Of a DNA stretch of 32,769 nt, positions 12,006 to 20,145 are shown piece by piece. How positions within the stretch are numbered: position 1 is the stretch's first letter; each line of letters opens with the position of its first letter. The notes beneath the pieces were generated by a model. The model made no database searches. It was given only the letters and a program-made list of their open reading frames with translations, and had not been told where the DNA came from. The position numbers and the translations under genes were made by a program. The DNA lies in the NCBI GenBank assembly GCA_038227875.1, contig JBBRPR010000083.1, positions 1 through 32,769 of the forward strand, written 5' to 3'. Source of the stretch: Planctomycetota bacterium. GTDB lineage: Bacteria; Planctomycetota; SZUA-567; H5-PLA8.

Positions 12006-13394
12006 CTATTCCATTCGCTGTAAAACCAGCCGCAATGTTTCGCGCAACGGCAGGCCCCGCAACGGATCGACCATATAGACAAACTCCACACGTCCGCGAA
12101 GGTACGCGGCGAAGTCGGGGCGTTTCTCGCGATTCTGACTCGCCAGACCGTGTTTCAACGCGTTGTGTAAAATCGCGCGAACCTCTCGGATGTATTCGCG
12201 CGAAACGGTGGGGCGATTGTTCACCGTCAGGCCGGTCACTTCCTGGCGCTGGGACTTGCGCATGACGTGGGTCTTTTTCGGATGCTCCGTGAAGCCTTCG
12301 TCCTGCAAAATCGAGCGGACGCTGCGCAGCAGTCTGCCGACAGCGCGGGTGTCTGTCCCAGAGAACGTGAGATCGTCAGCATAGCGCGTGTACGTGAATT
12401 CGTGTTTGTGCGCCAGGCCCGCGAGCCGCCGGTCGAGTCCCCGGCAGATCGCGTTTGTGATCGCGGGACTCGTGCACGCGCCCTGCGGCAGGGAACGTTG
12501 CGCCATCGCGACGTGATAAACTTTTCCTTCCACTTCCGCGGCAACGCGCGGCGGTTCGGTGCAGAGCAGCGCCATCACTGTCGCGACATGTTCGCAGTAC
12601 CCCAGGAATTCGAACAGCCCCTTCACGCGCGGAAAGCCGACCGTTGGGAAGAAATCCTTCAGGTCGAGATTAATCACGACCGGCTTGGCCGCATGCGGAC
12701 GCGCGTTGGTCAGGATCGAGCGTGACGGAACGAAGCCGTGTGCTTCCGGTTCGGTATTCAAGCGCGCGAGAATGTTGTCCTGAATCCATTGCTGTGCTTT
12801 GGCCAGCGACGGCTTGGGCGCGGAGATGTACCGGATTCCGCCGCTCTTTTTTGGCGTGCCGTAGCGATGGTAGTGAACCAGCGTCGCGCCGCGGCGATGA
12901 TAGGAAAGCCAGCGCAGGACGCCCACAGTGATGTTCATGCGCAACGCAAGTTCGACGCCGGTGTGAATGATCGGAAGTTTGCGTGCGTCCAACTTTACGG
13001 CATCGCTGAGCGCAGGCTGCAATCCGGCGCTGACGCCAATGCCAAGATGCAGGACCGAACTTTGCCGCGCGGCTTCCCAGATCTGCTTGCGTTTCAGGGC
13101 ATCGGCCAGGCGCTTTTCCTTTTTCTCCGCGCGCCGCTTGCGGCTTTCTTCCATGCGGCGCTTGTTTTCTGCCGCGAGCGCTTTTTCAGGATTCTTGGCG
13201 TTCGAATGCTGCTGCCGGAGTTTCGAGATCTGCTTTTCGATCGTGCTGCGTTCGTCGCGCTCCGCCGGTGGGTCTTCGGGAATGGGCACGCCGTACGGCC
13301 AGAAGCCGTGCGCCCGCATGCGTTCAAGCAGCATGTGTTCGTTGGCGTGAACGATGCGCTGATACAACCAGGCTTTTTCTTTGTCTGCTGCCAT
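12006..13394 (-). CDS. Retron-type reverse transcriptase with long basic/coiled N-terminal extension (Mx162-like)
   Basis: PKKSGG.R.I.AP, retron region X NARPH (NAxxH), DLKDFFP, LPQGACTSP, YTRYADDLTFS, and region Y RQEVTGLTVN (VTG). No maturase or endonuclease domain. Confidence 0.93.
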   Translation of the reverse strand: MAADKEKAWLYQRIVHANEHMLLERMRAHGFWPYGVPIPEDPPAERDERSTIEKQISKLRQQHSNAKNPEKALAAENKRRMEESRKRRAEKKEKRLADALKRKQIWEAARQSSVLHLGIGVSAGLQPALSDAVKLDARKLPIIHTGVELALRMNITVGVLRWLSYHRRGATLVHYHRYGTPKKSGGIRYISAPKPSLAKAQQWIQDNILARLNTEPEAHGFVPSRSILTNARPHAAKPVVINLDLKDFFPTVGFPRVKGLFEFLGYCEHVATVMALLCTEPPRVAAEVEGKVYHVAMAQRSLPQGACTSPAITNAICRGLDRRLAGLAHKHEFTYTRYADDLTFSGTDTRAVGRLLRSVRSILQDEGFTEHPKKTHVMRKSQRQEVTGLTVNNRPTVSREYIREVRAILHNALKHGLASQNREKRPDFAAYLRGRVEFVYMVDPLRGLPLRETLRLVLQRME

Positions 13395-13416
13395 GCTGTC
13401 GCCCAGACTTGAAATA

Positions 13417-13650
13417 TTATCGAAGGGGAGCGGCGGCGCTTACGAACATCCCACGGACGAGACCGGTCCACTCAAGTGGAACCGTGCCCTGCCGCAAGCC
13501 CGCGGGGCCCGAGGCCCTATCCAGCGCGGGCGGGCAGGGCACGGTTCCACGGGTGACGAACGGGCGCGTGATGAATGCCTGACACGTGAGCAAGCGCGGC
13601 GTAACGCCGCACAGTTTGCTAAGTCGTGCCGCCGCTTCCCTCCTCGATAA
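13417..13650 (-). ncRNA. Retron msr-msd non-coding RNA
   Basis: Flanking inverted repeats at 13417-13442 and 13620-13650. CUUA-G / G-UAAG junction gives a putative branching G at 13619. Two msr hairpins (13596-13610, 13577-13595). Long msd hairpin with a perfect 18-bp stem (13476-13493 / 13533-13550). Ends 22 nt upstream of the RT start codon. Confidence 0.85.
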
Positions 13651-15337
13651 AGGTTACAGAACGATCTTCGTCTGCAAGGCGACTCATATGAGCTAAACGC
13701 AACGACAAACTATGCTCGCACGGTCCCTTGGTCAACTGGTGTTTACGCGCAAATTCGCACGTACACGTCGCTTCGATGATGTGTCCCGCGTGGTCGACAT
13801 GAAGTTGCGGACGTACGCGGATTCCGTCCGCTCCTTTGGAACTGCCACTGAGTTTAAAGCCGGTGCTGACGGCCCGCCGCGCGATGATCTTCACGTTGCC
13901 GGCGTCATAGATCGCGCGCGCCGCCTTGGCCTGAAGATTCACTTCTTCGGCCGCCTGCGAGACCAGCGCCGCCGCCTGCTTGGCGGTGAACGGTTCGGCG
14001 AAGAGATCGCGATGCAGGAAGACGCCGCCGCTCAGGTCGCATATGGCACGCCCCACCTGGCACAGGTACGACAGCCCGCTGCGCGCCTGTTCGACGCCCA
14101 AGCCTGTCTGCATCGCAACGGCGCTGTCTGTGAGCGACTTGCTCTTTTTCAGGACATCGTAGACGCGCAGAAGCTCCGGCACACCCAGGGTCAGGCGCCG
14201 TGTCAGAAGATGAAATTTCGTATCGCCCGCCCAATCGTTGTCCGACCAGCCTGACAGCGCCAGCGTGAAGTTCACGGGGCCGAGGTCGAGCACATACATC
14301 GTCGGCATTCCGAATCCGGCCAGGTAGACGTCGATTCCGCGGCACGAGGGAATCAGTCGGCCCAGCATCCGCAATCGGTCGCGGCCCCACGTGCGAATGG
14401 ACTGCGCTTTCGCGCCGTCGTAAACGGATTTTGGCGAAAGCTCGATCGTGTGTTCCCAGGGTTCAAACACGACGCGGACGGGTTTGCCGGGCTCCAGTTC
14501 GTAACGCATTGCACGCGGCGATTTCTTGGCCTTGTGTGTGCGCAAGAACTGACAGATCGCGTGCAGATCCGCAGGCTCAAGTCGCAAGCGCGTGAGACTG
14601 AGTGTCATCGCGCTGTGAACCTGTAGGAAGCCCATCAGCCAACTGTCGGGCAGGTCGATTTTCTTTTCGTGGTGGGCGCTCTCGTTGAGCGCCACCGTGA
14701 AGCCGCCCGGGTCGACGGAAAAACGCGTGCGCCGGTACGAACGCATGCGCTCCAGTTCGCCGTGTAATTTCGCGCTGAAGTCGATGTTGGTCGTGCCGCA
14801 CTCCAGTTGCTCCACCTTGCTGAAAATCTCGTACTTGGCGCCGACGCGCGCGTAGCTGCTCTCATCGCGCGAAAACGCTTCGAAGAAAATCTCGCCCGGA
14901 TGGACCGTGATGACGGGGTCCAGAAAATACGAGAGCTCGTATTCGTTCTCGTAAATGTGATTGAAGAATTGCAGCCGCGCGCGGTGGAAGGGCTTCAGCC
15001 GTACGTTGCGCGCCTCATCCAGGTCGCTCAACCGCGCTTCGAGCTGTTCGAGCTGCTGGCGGACCTGCTGCGCCTGAATGCCGATCGTGGCGAGGAACTT
15101 GCGATCCTGCTCCGCGAGCCAGGCGAAAAACGCCGTGCGGTCCGGCGGGCGGTATTTGAAATCGCTGACGACGACCTGGTAAAGCGCCGCAAGTGCTTCG
15201 CGCAGGAGCAGTGGCTGGCCGAGTTCGCCGTGGAAAAACGTCGCCTCGCGCAGCGTGTTGGAGGCAAAGGCCATGTTCGCGGAGTTCAGTCCGTTGACGA
15301 TGCCGCTGCGGCCCGCGTATTTGTACTCAGCCTGCAT
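13619..15337 (-). CDS. SWIM zinc-finger protein (retron-associated)
   Basis: C-terminal CTC-x11-CEH SWIM motif, DPVITVHP..IFFEAFSRDESSY, TTNIDFS, a coiled segment, and a wHTH-like segment before the SWIM. Start overlaps the upstream gene by 11 nt. Confidence 0.88.
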   Translation of the reverse strand: MQAEYKYAGRSGIVNGLNSANMAFASNTLREATFFHGELGQPLLLREALAALYQVVVSDFKYRPPDRTAFFAWLAEQDRKFLATIGIQAQQVRQQLEQLEARLSDLDEARNVRLKPFHRARLQFFNHIYENEYELSYFLDPVITVHPGEIFFEAFSRDESSYARVGAKYEIFSKVEQLECGTTNIDFSAKLHGELERMRSYRRTRFSVDPGGFTVALNESAHHEKKIDLPDSWLMGFLQVHSAMTLSLTRLRLEPADLHAICQFLRTHKAKKSPRAMRYELEPGKPVRVVFEPWEHTIELSPKSVYDGAKAQSIRTWGRDRLRMLGRLIPSCRGIDVYLAGFGMPTMYVLDLGPVNFTLALSGWSDNDWAGDTKFHLLTRRLTLGVPELLRVYDVLKKSKSLTDSAVAMQTGLGVEQARSGLSYLCQVGRAICDLSGGVFLHRDLFAEPFTAKQAAALVSQAAEEVNLQAKAARAIYDAGNVKIIARRAVSTGFKLSGSSKGADGIRVRPQLHVDHAGHIIEATCTCEFARKHQLTKGPCEHSLSLRLAHMSRLADEDRSVTFIEEGSGGTT

Positions 15338-17867
15338 GCGATGCCTCCGTTTGAGGCAGCGTGACAGACGGAACGGCCTGCGGGTGCGCGAGCTTTATGC
15401 GAACGAGCGCTTCGAGCACTTCTTCGAAGTCGGCGCGCCCCTTTAGATGAAGAAATTCCGTGAGGATGCTGGACGCCACTTCCGCCTGCTTCGCGTCCTC
15501 GGTTCCGCGCCGCCCCAGCAGGCGGATGATGCCCTGCTTGAGCGCGCGGTGCGGGTAGTAATCGAAAATGCCGGTGCGACAGAAGCCTTTCAACTTTTCC
15601 AGCGCTTCAGCACCAGGCGGCAGGTGGCGTTCAATCAACTGCAGCGCGTATTTTCGAACGTTGGGGTGCGGATGCTGAATCAGCCGCGAGATCAGATCCG
15701 AGACGTCGTAGCGTTCGAGATGCTTCCGCGCCAGCTCGATGCCCATGTTTTGAACGTCGACGCGGTTCGAATCGATCATGCCGATCAGGCCGTTGTAACC
15801 GACATCCGAACCGGCCAGGCGCGTGCGAATCAGTTCGAAGGAGATGGCGCGCGTGTCCGGCCAATTGCTTTCGGCCAGCACGAGCAGCACCGACGGATCC
15901 TTCGCCCAGAGTTTTTCGGCCGCGCGAATCATGGCGTGAGCCGCCTGTCGGACGGCGGCGAGGTTGTGCTGCGCGAACAGTGTCAGCTTTTCCAGCCCAA
16001 TGCGCTCCGCGGCTTCCGGATGCAAGGCCAGCAGCGCCGATGCAACCGACAGGACCGCAATCGACTCGCTGGTGAGCAGCGTCAAAATCTCATCGAGGGA
16101 CAGGAGTTTATCGATCTGAGTCAGGAGCAGTTCGCGGCCGACTTTCGCGTACGCTTCGTGCCATTGCGGCGACGATTCCGGTGCGCGCAATTTCGCCAGG
16201 ACTCGGTCGGAGAGTTCCAGGCGGAAGCTGTGCTCATCAGGAGCATGCGCGATGACGAGCTCCGCGGCGAGCAGCCGCGCCAGGCTGTTCTCGACGCCGA
16301 GAAATGCGACGATGCGCGTTACGTCCGTGCACCACAGAGGCGCGGTTTCGCGCAACCACTTCTGCGCGAGCCCCAGCACGGCGGGGTGCTGCACATGACA
16401 TAGCCGCTCGAGCAGAGCCCAATCGGGCTTCGCCGGATCGAAGCGCCGCGACAGTTCTTCCAGCACAAGCTCTGCGGTCTTTTCGTATTCGACATGAAGC
16501 AGCGGAAGAAGTTCGTTCAACGACGCGGTCTGAAGCACCGCGCGGTGGCGCTGCGTGATCGCCTGATACGCAAACGCCTGGACTTCCGCGAGTTTCGCGG
16601 CACCGAGCACGCGCAGGTAAGCACGCGGCTGCGCGTCCCAGAGCTGGGGAAAGCGCTCTTCGCGAACGGACGACGGTGCAGCCGCGGCGGCGGAGGAGCG
16701 GAGTTTCGTGCGCAGATTCCGGCCGTCGATTTTCAGCCGCAAACTCGCGCCGTAGAGGATCTGGTTGAGCAGGTAGCAGCGCGCGAAAGCGCCGAACTTA
16801 CCCATGGGATGGTCGGCGTCCGCCTGGGAATAGTGGATCAGCACTTCCGCGGCGGATCGGCTGTACAAGTCCGGGCGATAACGCGCGATTTCGCGCAGGT
16901 AGCGCCAGCACAGCCGGCGGATGTAACTGCGCGTGCCGAAGCCGAAGATCCGGATGCTTCGCTGCACGCCGTCGTAGCCGGACTTTACGTTGGCGAGCGT
17001 GGACGTCGCGGTGCGGCCGTGATATTCGATCGTGTGGCTCAACCAGCCGAACGTGGCGAAGTCGCTGCGGAGCATTGAGCGCTTCAATACGCTCTTGGCG
17101 TAACGCCAGATGAAGGCCTGTTCGAATGGTGCGTGGCCCAGCGCGGTGACGGCCGCGCCGACGGCGACGGGCGTGCCCCATTCGTAGAGGAAGTCGGCAT
17201 ACAAGCCGAGGAACATCTTGTCGGAGCCGTTCAGCGCCAACGCCAGATTCGCCGCGGATTCGACGGCCTTCTGCGGACTCTCGTCGGCGCTGTTCAGCGC
17301 GTCGCGCACTTTCGGGCCGAGTTGTTCAAGGGTGCGCTGTCGCGCGGCCGCGAGTCCTTCGGCATCGCCCAGATTGCGCAGCGCTTCCACAGCCGAACGT
17401 CTTCGCGAGAGCAGCTTACGCGTGGCCTGTTCGCGCAGCACAGGAATCGCCCGCGCGTCGCCCATGCGGCCCAACGCGTCCATGATCGAGCAGGTATCGT
17501 CTGTTGCCTGCGGCACGCGCGCGATCAGTACTTCGACGTAATCTTTGCAACTCTTCAGTCCCAGTAGACGCGCGGCGCGGGCACGAACTTTGGCCTTCGA
17601 CGATTGGAGCGCGTGGAGTGCCGCGTGAACTCCGGACTGGAGATAACCCTGCGCCTGAAGTATGCGCGAAACTTCCGCGAGCCGGTCGGCGAGCTCTCCG
17701 GTGGGGTAGGGGCCGTACGCGGTGCTGTTGCTAAGCTTGCCGGATTTCGGGCCGCGCGCCACCTGGATCAGAAACTGATCCTTGTTGCCCCACGATTCCT
17801 GCACGGAGATTACGGCAATCCGGTCCGTGTTGGTGGGATTATAAAAATGTGTGGCCGGTGGAGGCAT
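15327..17867 (-). CDS. HEAT/ARM-repeat protein (retron-associated)
   Basis: HEAT-like units (VRARAARLLG, DALGRMGDARAIPVL, RRSAVEALRNLGD, AVRQAAHAMI, HPHPNVRKYAL). All-helical character over about 750 aa. Confidence 0.82.
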   Translation of the reverse strand: MPPPATHFYNPTNTDRIAVISVQESWGNKDQFLIQVARGPKSGKLSNSTAYGPYPTGELADRLAEVSRILQAQGYLQSGVHAALHALQSSKAKVRARAARLLGLKSCKDYVEVLIARVPQATDDTCSIMDALGRMGDARAIPVLREQATRKLLSRRRSAVEALRNLGDAEGLAAARQRTLEQLGPKVRDALNSADESPQKAVESAANLALALNGSDKMFLGLYADFLYEWGTPVAVGAAVTALGHAPFEQAFIWRYAKSVLKRSMLRSDFATFGWLSHTIEYHGRTATSTLANVKSGYDGVQRSIRIFGFGTRSYIRRLCWRYLREIARYRPDLYSRSAAEVLIHYSQADADHPMGKFGAFARCYLLNQILYGASLRLKIDGRNLRTKLRSSAAAAAPSSVREERFPQLWDAQPRAYLRVLGAAKLAEVQAFAYQAITQRHRAVLQTASLNELLPLLHVEYEKTAELVLEELSRRFDPAKPDWALLERLCHVQHPAVLGLAQKWLRETAPLWCTDVTRIVAFLGVENSLARLLAAELVIAHAPDEHSFRLELSDRVLAKLRAPESSPQWHEAYAKVGRELLLTQIDKLLSLDEILTLLTSESIAVLSVASALLALHPEAAERIGLEKLTLFAQHNLAAVRQAAHAMIRAAEKLWAKDPSVLLVLAESNWPDTRAISFELIRTRLAGSDVGYNGLIGMIDSNRVDVQNMGIELARKHLERYDVSDLISRLIQHPHPNVRKYALQLIERHLPPGAEALEKLKGFCRTGIFDYYPHRALKQGIIRLLGRRGTEDAKQAEVASSILTEFLHLKGRADFEEVLEALVRIKLAHPQAVPSVTLPQTEASHAG

Positions 17868-17880
17868 GTGCAGCCTTTAG

Positions 17881-18621
17881 CTATTTGAAGTCGTCAAAGT
17901 CTTCTTTTGATTTTACGTTGTCGTCGTCCTCTTCCTCGTCATCGTCGTCGTCACTGTTGTGCGGAACCGGGCTCTTGGTCGCGGAGGCTTGAACGGGCTT
18001 CGTCGCTTTGCTGGAACCGGAGACCGGTCCGAGTTCGCCCAATTCATCCTGCAGGGCGTTGCGCATGGCGATGAAGTCGTCGAATTCGCGCCGTCGGAAC
18101 AAATTGTAGCCGGTCCACATCAGGTCGGCGCAGATCTCGACGGGGACTCGTCCCGTGTTGGCGCCCAAGCCCGGCAGCGCGACGGAGCGGATCGAGCCGG
18201 GTTCGGCGGCATTCTGCATGTGAATCACCTGGAACGCCGCGGCGCAGGCGAGCGCGACGTTCATCGTGTCGCTGATGTCTTCCGACGAGGTGATCATCGT
18301 CGGGGTTGAGATCAGAAAGCGCGGCTGCGGCGCTTCTGTCGGCGTGCAGATCGCATGTCCGACTGGAAGAATCCCATTATATTGGCGGTGAATGCCCTGC
18401 TGCAGCCGCGTTTCGATCTTGTCGCCGAGATGCTTCTTGATGATGCCGTCCAGCCCGCCGTCCATGCTGCCGCGCGAATTGGTCGGGGACACCCATGCGC
18501 TGACAGGCTGCGCGAGCATGGAGCCTTCGATGATCTGCACTTCCGGGTTTTCTTCAAAGGTAGAGCGCCAAGCCTTGATCATCTTCGGATTGATGTCGAC
18601 GAGCGTGACGGAAACCAGCAT
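17881..18621 (-). CDS. Macrodomain protein (ADP-ribose binding/hydrolase) with acidic tail
   Basis: VSPTNSRGSMDGGLD, LISTPTM and SVALPGLGANTG macro signatures. RBS AAAGGAGG. D/E-rich C-terminus. Confidence 0.92.
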   Translation of the reverse strand: MLVSVTLVDINPKMIKAWRSTFEENPEVQIIEGSMLAQPVSAWVSPTNSRGSMDGGLDGIIKKHLGDKIETRLQQGIHRQYNGILPVGHAICTPTEAPQPRFLISTPTMITSSEDISDTMNVALACAAAFQVIHMQNAAEPGSIRSVALPGLGANTGRVPVEICADLMWTGYNLFRRREFDDFIAMRNALQDELGELGPVSGSSKATKPVQASATKSPVPHNSDDDDDEEEDDDNVKSKEDFDDFK

Positions 18622-18639: not shown

Positions 18640-20067
18640 TCAGCACGAAAATTCAGCAAGATACTCCATGCGCTGCCGGTCAGTGCTGTAGACGACGTAT
18701 TCGTCGTCCGCGAATTCCGACTTGGATAGAAGCTTGCTTCGCACGCCATGGCAACTGTCGTATCCCGGCGGTGGTGCTTCAAGTCCGTACGTAATCTTGT
18801 GGTATTGCTTGATCTTTCCCAGGCTCACGCGTGCGACGGTCAAAAACCGGGTGCCGCTTTTGCCGGCCGAGGTGTAGAAGGCGCTGGTACAGGCCGCATC
18901 GCCAAAATAGATCCCGTTGCCGAGCCAGCCGGCGTCCGTGCGGTTGACGCCCATGCTGACGACAATCTTGGGCAGCAGAATTCCGCGCGAAAGCAACCCG
19001 ACCCAATTCTGAATGCGCGAGCCGTGGAAGAGCAGCCGCTGATTACCGATCTTGTCGTCGAACTTCTCCCATTCGCCGCCGCGGCGCACGGTAAAGAGGT
19101 TCTTCACTTTGATGTTCTTCGATTTAATCTGGCTCTTAATGATGTGATCTTCGATCTCATGGTAGATACCCGACGACTTGGGCACCGGCGCGATATCGCA
19201 TTTCAAAGACAGGTACTGCGCATCGATCTGCTCGTTGTAGAGCACGTTTCCGGCTTCGCCGTTGACCTGGAGCATGTCTTTCATCAACTGCAGCGTTTCC
19301 TGCTTCTGCTGGAAGGCGTCCATGGTGTTGATCACGGCGCCGGCAATCGCGCTTCGTGTGCGGCCGATGCGATGCGGGATGACCGTGTAGAATTCCCCGG
19401 ACAGGTCTTCCATTTTCGACGCCTGCTGCTTGTTGGATTTGAACAGGTCGTACAGTTCGAGCAGGATGGCTTCGCCTTTTTCGATCTGACCGATGGTGAG
19501 AACGCCCAGCGGCGTCTCAATGCCGTTGGCGGTGATCTTCGCGCTGACGCTGCTGGTGAGCGCGTTGGTTGCTTCTGAGAACAGGTAACGGACAAGACTC
19601 TGGATGCTGCTGTCAAGTCCCAGCGACTTCACCGCCGGAACGGGCTCGCCCGCGGCTTCTTTGGCCTTGGCGAGTTTATCGAGCGTCTTGCTGTCCACTT
19701 CGCCGACGCTCGCCCCGCGCGCCTTTTGCGAGCCAATTTTACTCGAGGCCAGCGCCAGCTCTTTGTAACCCTTGCGCGGCGATGTTTTTTCGCGGTAGAT
19801 CGAGAGGTAGTTGCTGTCGGCTTCGACCTGATTGTCGAAGTAGCGGCATTCTTTCTGGCCGCTGTTGGGATTCGTTTCCAGGTCGTCGGTGCGGCCGTAG
19901 TGCGTGAAGACGCGGAACTTTGCGCCGCCGCGGTGCAATTCTATCGCGTAATATTTGTTGCGGTTGGTTTTGAGATCCGTGACTTGGAGCACGGCCTTTT
20001 TAACGATTTCAAAGTCGTCGGGAAATTCCGGCTCGCCGGATTCACCGTGTTTCCATGCTTCTGCCAT
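18640..20067 (-). CDS. Poly(ADP-ribose) polymerase (WGR + regulatory helical domain + catalytic domain)
   Basis: NKYYAIEL..VFTHYGR..IYREKT (WGR), PLGVLTIGQI..G / LSGEFYTVIPH (PARP_reg), and LLFHGS, GNGIYFGD, SAFY, DEYVVY (H-Y-E triad). RBS GGGGAG precedes ATG 20067. Confidence 0.95.
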   Translation of the reverse strand: MAEAWKHGESGEPEFPDDFEIVKKAVLQVTDLKTNRNKYYAIELHRGGAKFRVFTHYGRTDDLETNPNSGQKECRYFDNQVEADSNYLSIYREKTSPRKGYKELALASSKIGSQKARGASVGEVDSKTLDKLAKAKEAAGEPVPAVKSLGLDSSIQSLVRYLFSEATNALTSSVSAKITANGIETPLGVLTIGQIEKGEAILLELYDLFKSNKQQASKMEDLSGEFYTVIPHRIGRTRSAIAGAVINTMDAFQQKQETLQLMKDMLQVNGEAGNVLYNEQIDAQYLSLKCDIAPVPKSSGIYHEIEDHIIKSQIKSKNIKVKNLFTVRRGGEWEKFDDKIGNQRLLFHGSRIQNWVGLLSRGILLPKIVVSMGVNRTDAGWLGNGIYFGDAACTSAFYTSAGKSGTRFLTVARVSLGKIKQYHKITYGLEAPPPGYDSCHGVRSKLLSKSEFADDEYVVYSTDRQRMEYLAEFSC

Positions 20068-20117
20068 AAAAAGCTCCCCACGATGGCAAAATCTCAAAAT
20101 TGATGAATATCCCGCGC

Positions 20118-20145
20118 ATCGTAGTCTGATATGCACGAAGCGCAA
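20118..20145 (-). promoter_or_regulatory. Possible sigma70-type promoter for the PARP-to-RT operon
   Basis: TTGCGC-N16-TACGAT on the minus strand, preceded by an A-rich tract, in the 108-nt gap between the ARH and PARP genes. Confidence 0.4.

Follow-up and report, generated by a model that had tools for sequence, protein, structure and literature searches.

What is encoded between positions 13417 and 13650 of a 32,769-nucleotide (nt) stretch of contig JBBRPR010000083.1 (assembly GCA_038227875.1, a Planctomycetota bacterium), in the interval between a gene for a SWIM zinc-finger protein and a gene for a reverse transcriptase (RT)? We refer to the whole stretch as the window. A preliminary description, made by reading the letters, had proposed that the minus strand of this interval carries the msr-msd non-coding RNA (ncRNA) of a retron, from which the RT would make multicopy single-stranded DNA (msDNA); it had also named a branching guanosine, an msDNA start and several hairpins. 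Every element it named is present where it was placed, and its central proposal is supported by neighbours that match the SWIM_XIII and RT_XIII profiles and by the same architecture, with covariation, upstream of related RTs. We conclude that the stretch is very probably the msr-msd ncRNA gene of a type XIII retron.

Two of the analyses that the preliminary description had asked for, RNA folding and a covariance model of the interval between SWIM and RT genes across homologues, were run. The 234-nt RNA has a folding energy of -136.1 kcal/mol, compared with a mean of -101.1 kcal/mol (standard deviation 5.03) in 200 shuffles (z = -6.96), and none of the 200 shuffles folded as stably. From its 5' end, the parts of the RNA are as follows.

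13628-13650, minus strand: outer 5' closing arm of a1, UUAUCGAGGAGGGAAGCGGCGGC, within the final codons of the SWIM open reading frame
13620-13627, minus strand: internal loop ACGA (13627-13624) and junction strand CUUA (13623-13620), the latter pairing with UAAG at 13442-13439
13619, minus strand: predicted priming (branching) guanosine in the context UUAGC, also the final base of the SWIM stop codon TAG
13591-13618, minus strand: msr hairpin 1, an 8-bp stem (13612-13605 with 13601-13594) with loop UUA
13567-13586, minus strand: putative, weakly based second msr hairpin, and linker
13461-13565, minus strand: long msd hairpin (template), with conserved base helix, 18-bp perfect stem, 7-bp stem and cap
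13447-13459, minus strand: small hairpin CGUCC-GUG-GGAUG, just ahead of the template start
13417-13443, minus strand: facing G13443, UAAG (13442-13439), C13438 and a2 outer arm (13437-13417)

Two outer pairs, C13618-G13591 and A13617-U13592, extend msr hairpin 1 beyond its 8-bp stem, and the hairpin contains the sequence GCGGCG-UUA-CGCCGC at 13610-13596. The long msd hairpin is built as first described, from 18 perfect base pairs (13533-13550 with 13476-13493) and a 7-bp stem (13525-13531 with 13498-13504) that closes on the cap GGGCC-UCG-GGCCC at 13505-13517, and the duplex of a1 with a2 at this locus is worth -48.5 kcal/mol. Closing inverted repeats, a priming G opposite a second G, and an msr hairpin with a long msd stem-loop, the general marks of a retron ncRNA, are thus all present.

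Relatives of the locus allowed this architecture to be examined comparatively. Five other loci with a SWIM gene followed by an RT gene carry the same intergenic fold (L001, L003, L004, L017 and L018). Searches for loci with single proteins returned one relative in one case and the query alone in the other; a scan with an alignment of the six RTs returned 80 further loci at 42-64% identity which, judging by record titles, come from Planctomycetota, Myxococcota, Acidobacteriota, Verrucomicrobiota, Bacteroidota, Pseudomonadota and Bacillota. In these loci an nhmmer search with the first alignment found the element again, with 59 of 61 matches on the strand of the RT. When several subtypes were put into one alignment (MAFFT and RNAalifold), nothing beyond the msr hairpin or fragments of the fold emerged, since subtypes differ by 4 nt in the position of the 5' junction, and we therefore used a junction-anchored analysis together with a model of a single subtype. 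This model, R1, rests on 18 copies belonging to the window's subtype, each trimmed to 16 nt beyond its two Gs before alignment with MAFFT. It has a single match in the window (13427-13635, minus strand; 174.5 bits, E = 5.1e-41), which is also its single match in the 9.3-Mb genome. Over 99 sources R1 produced 74 matches in 68 sources, 73 of them on the RT strand. Matches were found in 60 of the 79 six-RT scan loci searched, and the 19 loci without one include loci truncated upstream, the five Bacillota loci and several copies of the other subtype that the junction analysis did find.

Covariation in these copies is strong. When the 74 matches were fitted to the model, 84.3% of pair cells were paired, a value that fell to 37.3-42.1% when partners were slid by 1-3 columns; the covariation score was 0.579 (at most 0.116 after sliding), 65 of 73 pairs had changed on both sides, and 0 of 500 shuffles reached the observed score. 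The 18 seed sequences aligned by MAFFT only, and hence unfitted to any structure, gave nearly the same picture, with 83.0% of cells paired (36.7-43.9% after sliding), a covariation score of 0.378 (at most 0.130 after sliding), changes on both sides in 45 of 73 pairs, and again no shuffle among 500 reaching the observed score. The junction helix is paired in 98.0% of cells in the fitted alignment and in 94.4% in the sequence-only alignment, where the pair types are UA/CG, UA/CG and AU/GC/CG. Pairing in msr hairpin 1 reaches 99.5% across the 74 copies, with changes on both sides at six of its eight pairs, and 100% in the sequence-only alignment, where the outer pair is AU in 8 sequences and CG in 8. 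The helices of the msd are 68-95% paired in the fitted alignment, nearly all of their pairs having changed on both sides, and the small hairpin at 13447-13459 is 71.3% paired in the 74 copies and 86.8% in the sequence-only alignment.

The closing arms covary as well: they vary in sequence among loci and match inside each locus. In 40 copies, cognate a1/a2 duplexes average -57.4 kcal/mol, compared with -34.6 kcal/mol (standard deviation 7.2) for non-cognate combinations, and the cognate a2 is top-ranked for 31 of 40 a1 arms; several of the nine other arms are explained by three near-identical loci and by tandem copies. Such tandem arrangements, in which two full ncRNA copies with differing msd stems precede one RT, were seen at L022 (1000-1210 and 1249-1459), L033, L053, L068, L073, L081, L172 and L192.

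The proposed priming site was approached through the junction, which was located from the G fixed by alignment and from weighted Watson-Crick pairs. All 40 of these copies have a helix that ends at a 5'-side G, opposite a 3'-side G, and the distance between the two is 170-183 nt in 39 copies and 194 nt in one. Across subtypes the junction pairs change together (UUA/UAA, CUA/UAG, CUG/CAG, UGA/UCA, CGA/UCG and UUC/GAA). The minimum of three junction pairs arises partly by construction, the partner having been chosen for pairing; the conserved junction context, GUUCGUAA or GAAGUCR, and the constant spacing do not. Across the 74 R1 matches the column of G13619 holds G in 68, a gap in 5 and A in 1, the next base is C in 71, the column of the facing G13443 is G in 71, and 61 have C as the template base that precedes the facing G. 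A second set of loci, collected through PARP genes as described below and sharing contigs with the first, has both Gs in 40 of 41 matches. The two Gs are 175 nt apart in the window. Their distance falls within 173-194 nt in 65 of 67 copies, and in the PARP-derived set 38 of 39 copies have one of 172-181 nt.

These features can be set beside the printed descriptions of retrons, in which the priming G lies most often in TAGC, and in CAGC in Mx162 and Sa163, and the first base copied in Ec86 is a cytosine (Simon et al. 2019, PMC6868368); a priming G that faces a second G is described in the same paper and in the legend to Figure 2 of PMC7736814. With G13619 in the context UUAGC and C13444 as the template base, both of the original assignments, the branching G and the msDNA start, fit the family and the printed rule. 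Priming from G13619 and an msDNA start opposite C13444 are thus well supported by comparison. Sequence and alignments show that the ends of the minus-strand RNA, a1 (13650-13620) and a2 (13442-13417), pair with each other. This places G13619, either unpaired or in a loose pair, in a three-way junction directly opposite G13443. The near-fixed distance between the two Gs across phyla, despite a freely changing msd stem sequence, points to a constraint on msDNA length.

Several observations weigh against this account and have to be set beside it. The case is built from sequence and comparison, and msDNA production is a prediction. Fitting the 74 matches to the model inclines their alignment towards the structure of that model, and many of the loci are interrelated, the PARP-derived set sharing contigs with the RT-derived set, such that the counts overstate independence. 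Of the two small msr hairpins in the preliminary description the first is borne out by the values given above, and the second did not hold up, being 61.4% paired in the fitted alignment and 72.2% in the sequence-only alignment, with 0 of 5 pairs double-changed in the latter. The stop site of reverse transcription, and with it the length of the msDNA, is placed by analogy. No sigma-70-like promoter was found in 13200-14200, where 0.3 would be expected by chance; the host may use other promoters. Finally, 64 of 68 copies have C or U at the position able to pair with the priming G, for which reason G13619 is possibly not free in the unbound RNA, and before RT binding it may sit in a weak pair at the three-way junction.

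The same region of the fold gives rise to the alternative nearest to the one we prefer, a retron ncRNA whose primer is not G13619 or whose start is not C13444, for example one in which ACGA/UCGU defines the junction. The unconstrained minimum-energy fold does take ACGA/UCGU and pairs G13619 with C13590, and forcing the CUUA/UAAG junction of the preliminary description carries a penalty of 4.9 kcal/mol (-112.8 versus -117.7); judged by eye from the junction sequences, pairing like ACGA/UCGU is possible in some relatives too. The comparison nevertheless backs CUUA/UAAG, a helix kept by two-sided changes across subtypes and 94-98% paired, and the priming and facing Gs are nearly invariant in a context that is the printed TAGC consensus. 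We consider a different primer or start improbable. It would also be possible to see in the locus an inactive relic, a preserved RNA gene beside an RT that no longer makes msDNA, and the overlap of a1 with the SWIM reading frame could be taken in that sense. At least one relative (L155) has the same overlap between the 3' end of its SWIM gene and the RNA, however, and in the window the RT has an unbroken reading frame with every motif in place, the four operon genes upstream are all open and tightly packed, and the ncRNA ranks 13th by score among the 74 R1 matches, all of which makes decay very unlikely. Least credible of all, and in our estimate close to negligible, is a structured element of another kind between the two genes, for instance a terminator, a repeated palindrome or an attenuator acting on the RT gene. 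In its favour the RNA is GC-rich, very stable and placed between two genes, but the minus strand showed no terminator-like site, the sequence occurs in a single copy in the genome, no Rfam family fits it, and its architecture, its invariant Gs and its spacing of 173-194 nt accompany type XIII RTs across several phyla.

Taking the stretch, then, as the ncRNA of a type XIII retron, the product can be predicted as follows.

13444-13582, plus strand: predicted msDNA, 5'-GAACATCC..., with its start placed by comparison and an uncertain 3' end at about 13565 to 13582

The DNA from 13444 to 13582 folds at -47.9 kcal/mol (z = -6.23). Its 3' end was calibrated on genomes of the family to which the genome of L098 (titled Hyalangium versicolor) belongs, 35 of 81 of which have RT relatives at E up to 1e-40. 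Five loci among them (L128 and L130-L133) have the context gcatCAGCc, the hairpin core GCGGCGUUGCGCCGC and a spacing from G to G of exactly 211 nt in all five; we call them Mx162-like, a label that rests on the printed CAGC context and on dimensions. Their arms span about 34 positions, of which 29-30 are paired (ungapped count) in three of the five loci, with pairing in the other two halting early at mismatches. The resemblance of msr hairpin 1 to a hairpin of Mx162, noted in the preliminary description, holds against these loci, the core being GCGGCGUUGCGCCGC there and GCGGCGUUACGCCGC here.

Mx162 has a DNA of 162 nt with an 8-nt overlap (PMC6868368). A spacing of 211 nt equals 162 (msd) + 57 - 8, and implies 57 nt of RNA after the priming G. 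The same 57 nt would follow from an Mx162 msdRNA of 77 nt branched at G20, figures ascribed to its original description and assumed here. Simon et al. give 71 nt for the Mx162 RNA, unlike the 77 assumed here (PMC6868368). With 57 nt, the stop in the Mx162-like loci falls inside the 27-nt linker that joins the two hairpins, 10 nt past the first and 17 nt ahead of the long hairpin's base; the corresponding linker in the window measures 25-29 nt. Transferred to the window, the stop would lie at about G+35 to G+37, and the DNA, running from 13444 to about 13582, would be 139-141 nt long; a stop at the base of the hairpin would give one of 122 nt. By this analogy the msDNA is probably about 122-141 nt long, somewhat longer than the 110-130 nt estimated originally, and the region 13567-13586 probably holds the 3' end of the msr and the stop site of reverse transcription.

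Close to this presumed stop the RNA carries the motif UUCRUCAC twice in succession, as CAUUCAUCACGCGCCCGUUCGUCAC in the window (13560-13580, minus strand) and as UUCGUCAC twice in the consensus, and GUUCGU recurs at the template start (13441-13450, minus strand). GUGGAAC, in the base of the msd hairpin, is a possible partner for both upstream copies of UUCRUCAC, a complementarity that hints at alternative pairings near the presumed stop.

All large open reading frames at the locus are on the minus strand and tightly packed. In the order of transcription they are:

18640-20145, minus strand: complete WGR-PARP_reg-PARP gene (Pfam), first in the row
17881-18621, minus strand: Macro-domain gene (Pfam), after an 18-nt gap
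15327-17867, minus strand: HEAT/ARM-repeat accessory protein of 846 amino acids (Pfam HEAT_2), 13 nt after the Macro gene
13619-15337, minus strand: SWIM zinc-finger accessory protein of 572 amino acids, overlapping the HEAT gene by 11 nt
12006-13394, minus strand: retron reverse transcriptase of 462 amino acids, downstream of the RNA, with an N-terminal extension of about 170 amino acids

The assignment to type XIII follows from these proteins. The best PADLOC family of the RT is RT_XIII (E = 2.3e-160; 532.7 bits versus 368.9 for the next family), which places it in clade 10 by profile rather than by tree, and its partners are a SWIM and a HEAT/ARM protein. Pfam RVT_1 matches the RT at residues 181-391, and the motifs NAxxH (as NARPH), YADD and VTG, named as in PMC7736814 and PMC6868368, are present and invariant in the six-sequence alignment. 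SWIM_XIII matches residues 1-551 of the 572 in the SWIM protein (E = 1.4e-177), which has a CxCx12CxH arrangement near its C-terminus, motif CTCEFARKHQLTKGPCEH; the HEAT protein matches WGR_XIII (E = 6.5e-97, positions 105-614 of 973) and HEAT-ARM_XIII (E = 4.4e-68). The retron models of NCBIfam, which include none for type XIII, match below their cut-offs. In Rfam, searched at E up to 10, no family reached its gathering threshold; the only two matches, mir-575 with 22 bits against a threshold of 100 and ncS037 with 17.1 bits against one of 112, fell on the msd hairpin and look like chance.

The SWIM stop codon TAG ends on G13619 itself, and a1 encodes the last SWIM codons; because the PADLOC profile stops at residue 551, this tail does not belong to the conserved part of the protein. 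At L155, similarly, the SWIM match runs to 16619 and the RNA match begins at 16612.

The same genome holds a second type XIII retron, with its RT at G000:C4 146233-147402 (minus strand) and its ncRNA at L018:3129-3377 (minus strand). The RT and SWIM proteins are 46% and 35% identical to those of the window, respectively, the ncRNA is of the other subtype (CUGAG...GUCAG, 176 nt between the Gs), and the 12 kb upstream gave no match to PARP, Macro or HEAT. Parts of 13000-14200 have counterparts, 90-100% identical, among short contigs of three other metagenome studies, and near relatives of the window's retron therefore occur in other samples.

Type XIII retrons correspond to RT clade 10, which includes the classical myxobacterial retrons Retron-Mxa1/Mx162, Mxa2/Mx65, Sau1/Sa163 and Nex2/Ne144 and has ncRNA structures of its own (Mestre et al. 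2020, PMC7736814). Planctomycetota account for 26 of the 143 type XIII candidates in a survey of 2026 (PMC13712802). The type, its gene set and its ncRNA structures were thus already published in 2020, and the locus described here is one further member. It shares with them RT, SWIM/DEDE and HEAT/ARM proteins that match the PADLOC type XIII profiles, the long N-terminal extension seen in myxobacterial RTs (PMC6868368), and an ncRNA placed between the SWIM gene and the RT gene, in which closing arms and two Gs opposite each other accompany an msr hairpin and a long hairpin in the msd. It differs in that the window and its nearest relatives also have WGR-PARP and Macro genes, and in that the HEAT protein covers only positions 105-614 of the 973-position WGR_XIII profile.

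Compared with Mx162 and Sa163, as represented by the Mx162-like loci, the arms again end at an unpaired G opposite a G, with C after the priming G, the core of the msr hairpin differs by one loop base, and a SWIM gene lies upstream. The differences are a context of CAGC there and UAGC here, about 14 extra nt between the G and the hairpin there, and a spacing of 211 nt there and 175 nt here, from which it follows that the msd hairpin is shorter here; moreover, no PARP or Macro gene was found within 12 kb upstream in four Mx162-like regions (L151-L154, from the genomes of L128, L130, L131 and L132). L214, from a Nannocystaceae genome, carries the same RNA at 143.6 bits, with 176 nt between the Gs, and its operon has the same six parts. 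Retron-Nex2 (Ne144, from Nannocystis exedens) is probably of the same ncRNA subtype, as judged from taxonomy and dimensions rather than from the Ne144 sequence, and a 144-nt DNA would fit a spacing of 173-181 nt. Retron-Eco1 (Ec86), of type II-A, operates along the same general lines and also has its priming G in TAGC at the inner end of a1/a2 and C as the first base copied (PMC6868368), but it belongs to another RT clade, has other effectors and has a much shorter msd.

The PARP and Macro genes raise a further question, whether they belong to the retron. The same six-part order is found in the nearest relative genome, G008 (L134), and in G041 (L135), which also holds the Myxococcaceae locus L039. 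A scan with an alignment of the three PARPs returned 78 loci (L155-L232) at 46-69% identity. Where at least 7.2 kb follow the start of the PARP gene (55 loci), 36 loci, by record title from Planctomycetota, Myxococcota, Acidobacteriota and Pseudomonadota, have Macro, HEAT, SWIM, an R1 match and RT in the same order and direction; the remaining 19 are without the full order, most of them having the PARP-Macro pair alone. Conversely, a tblastn search of 12 kb upstream found neither PARP nor Macro in 19 other type XIII loci, of which seven are of a UUGC subtype, seven of the other subtype, four Mx162-like and one of the window's subtype. Residues H374, Y413 and E482, which we take to be the H-Y-E catalytic residues of PARP enzymes, are invariant in the three-PARP alignment.

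A functional link between the PARP-Macro pair and the retron is plausible because the gene order is conserved across phyla. The words PARP, macro and ADP-ribos do not appear in the main texts of PMC7736814 and PMC13712802, though supplements may list these neighbours, and no literature linking retrons with PARP was found in the library searched, the papers that name both being concerned with other topics as far as their titles and the opening of their abstracts indicate. The arrangement may be new.

How such a system might work can be outlined from established retron biochemistry. The RT encoded downstream (12006-13394) would bind the conserved msr hairpin, prime from the 2'-OH of G13619, and copy from C13444 towards the template's 5' end through the msd hairpin, halting about 35-54 nt short of the G, while RNase H would remove the copied RNA. 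RNA and DNA would be joined in a branched product, in which the DNA corresponds to the plus strand between 13444 and about 13565-13582 and folds into a long hairpin. By analogy with other retrons, a particle of msDNA and RT would then be expected to restrain the SWIM and HEAT/ARM proteins, and perhaps the PARP and Macro proteins, until infection. We know of no type XIII retron for which restraint of accessory proteins has been shown.

The WGR domain of eukaryotic PARPs reads DNA ends. A speculative extension, which we regard as doubtful though not far-fetched, is that type XIII includes a six-part subclass not yet described (PARP, Macro, HEAT/ARM, SWIM, ncRNA and RT), to which this RNA would belong and whose msDNA would be the ligand of the WGR domain of the PARP; if phage infection destroyed or altered the msDNA, ADP-ribosylation or NAD+ consumption would be switched on, with the macrodomain enzyme reversing the modification.

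At its plainest, the window contributes one more type XIII retron RNA, with predictions at the level of single bases for its priming G, its DNA start and its hairpin. To our knowledge, type XIII comprises the oldest known retrons. If the link to the PARP-Macro pair is functional, it would tie retron DNA to ADP-ribosylation and provide a handle on the type XIII retrons.

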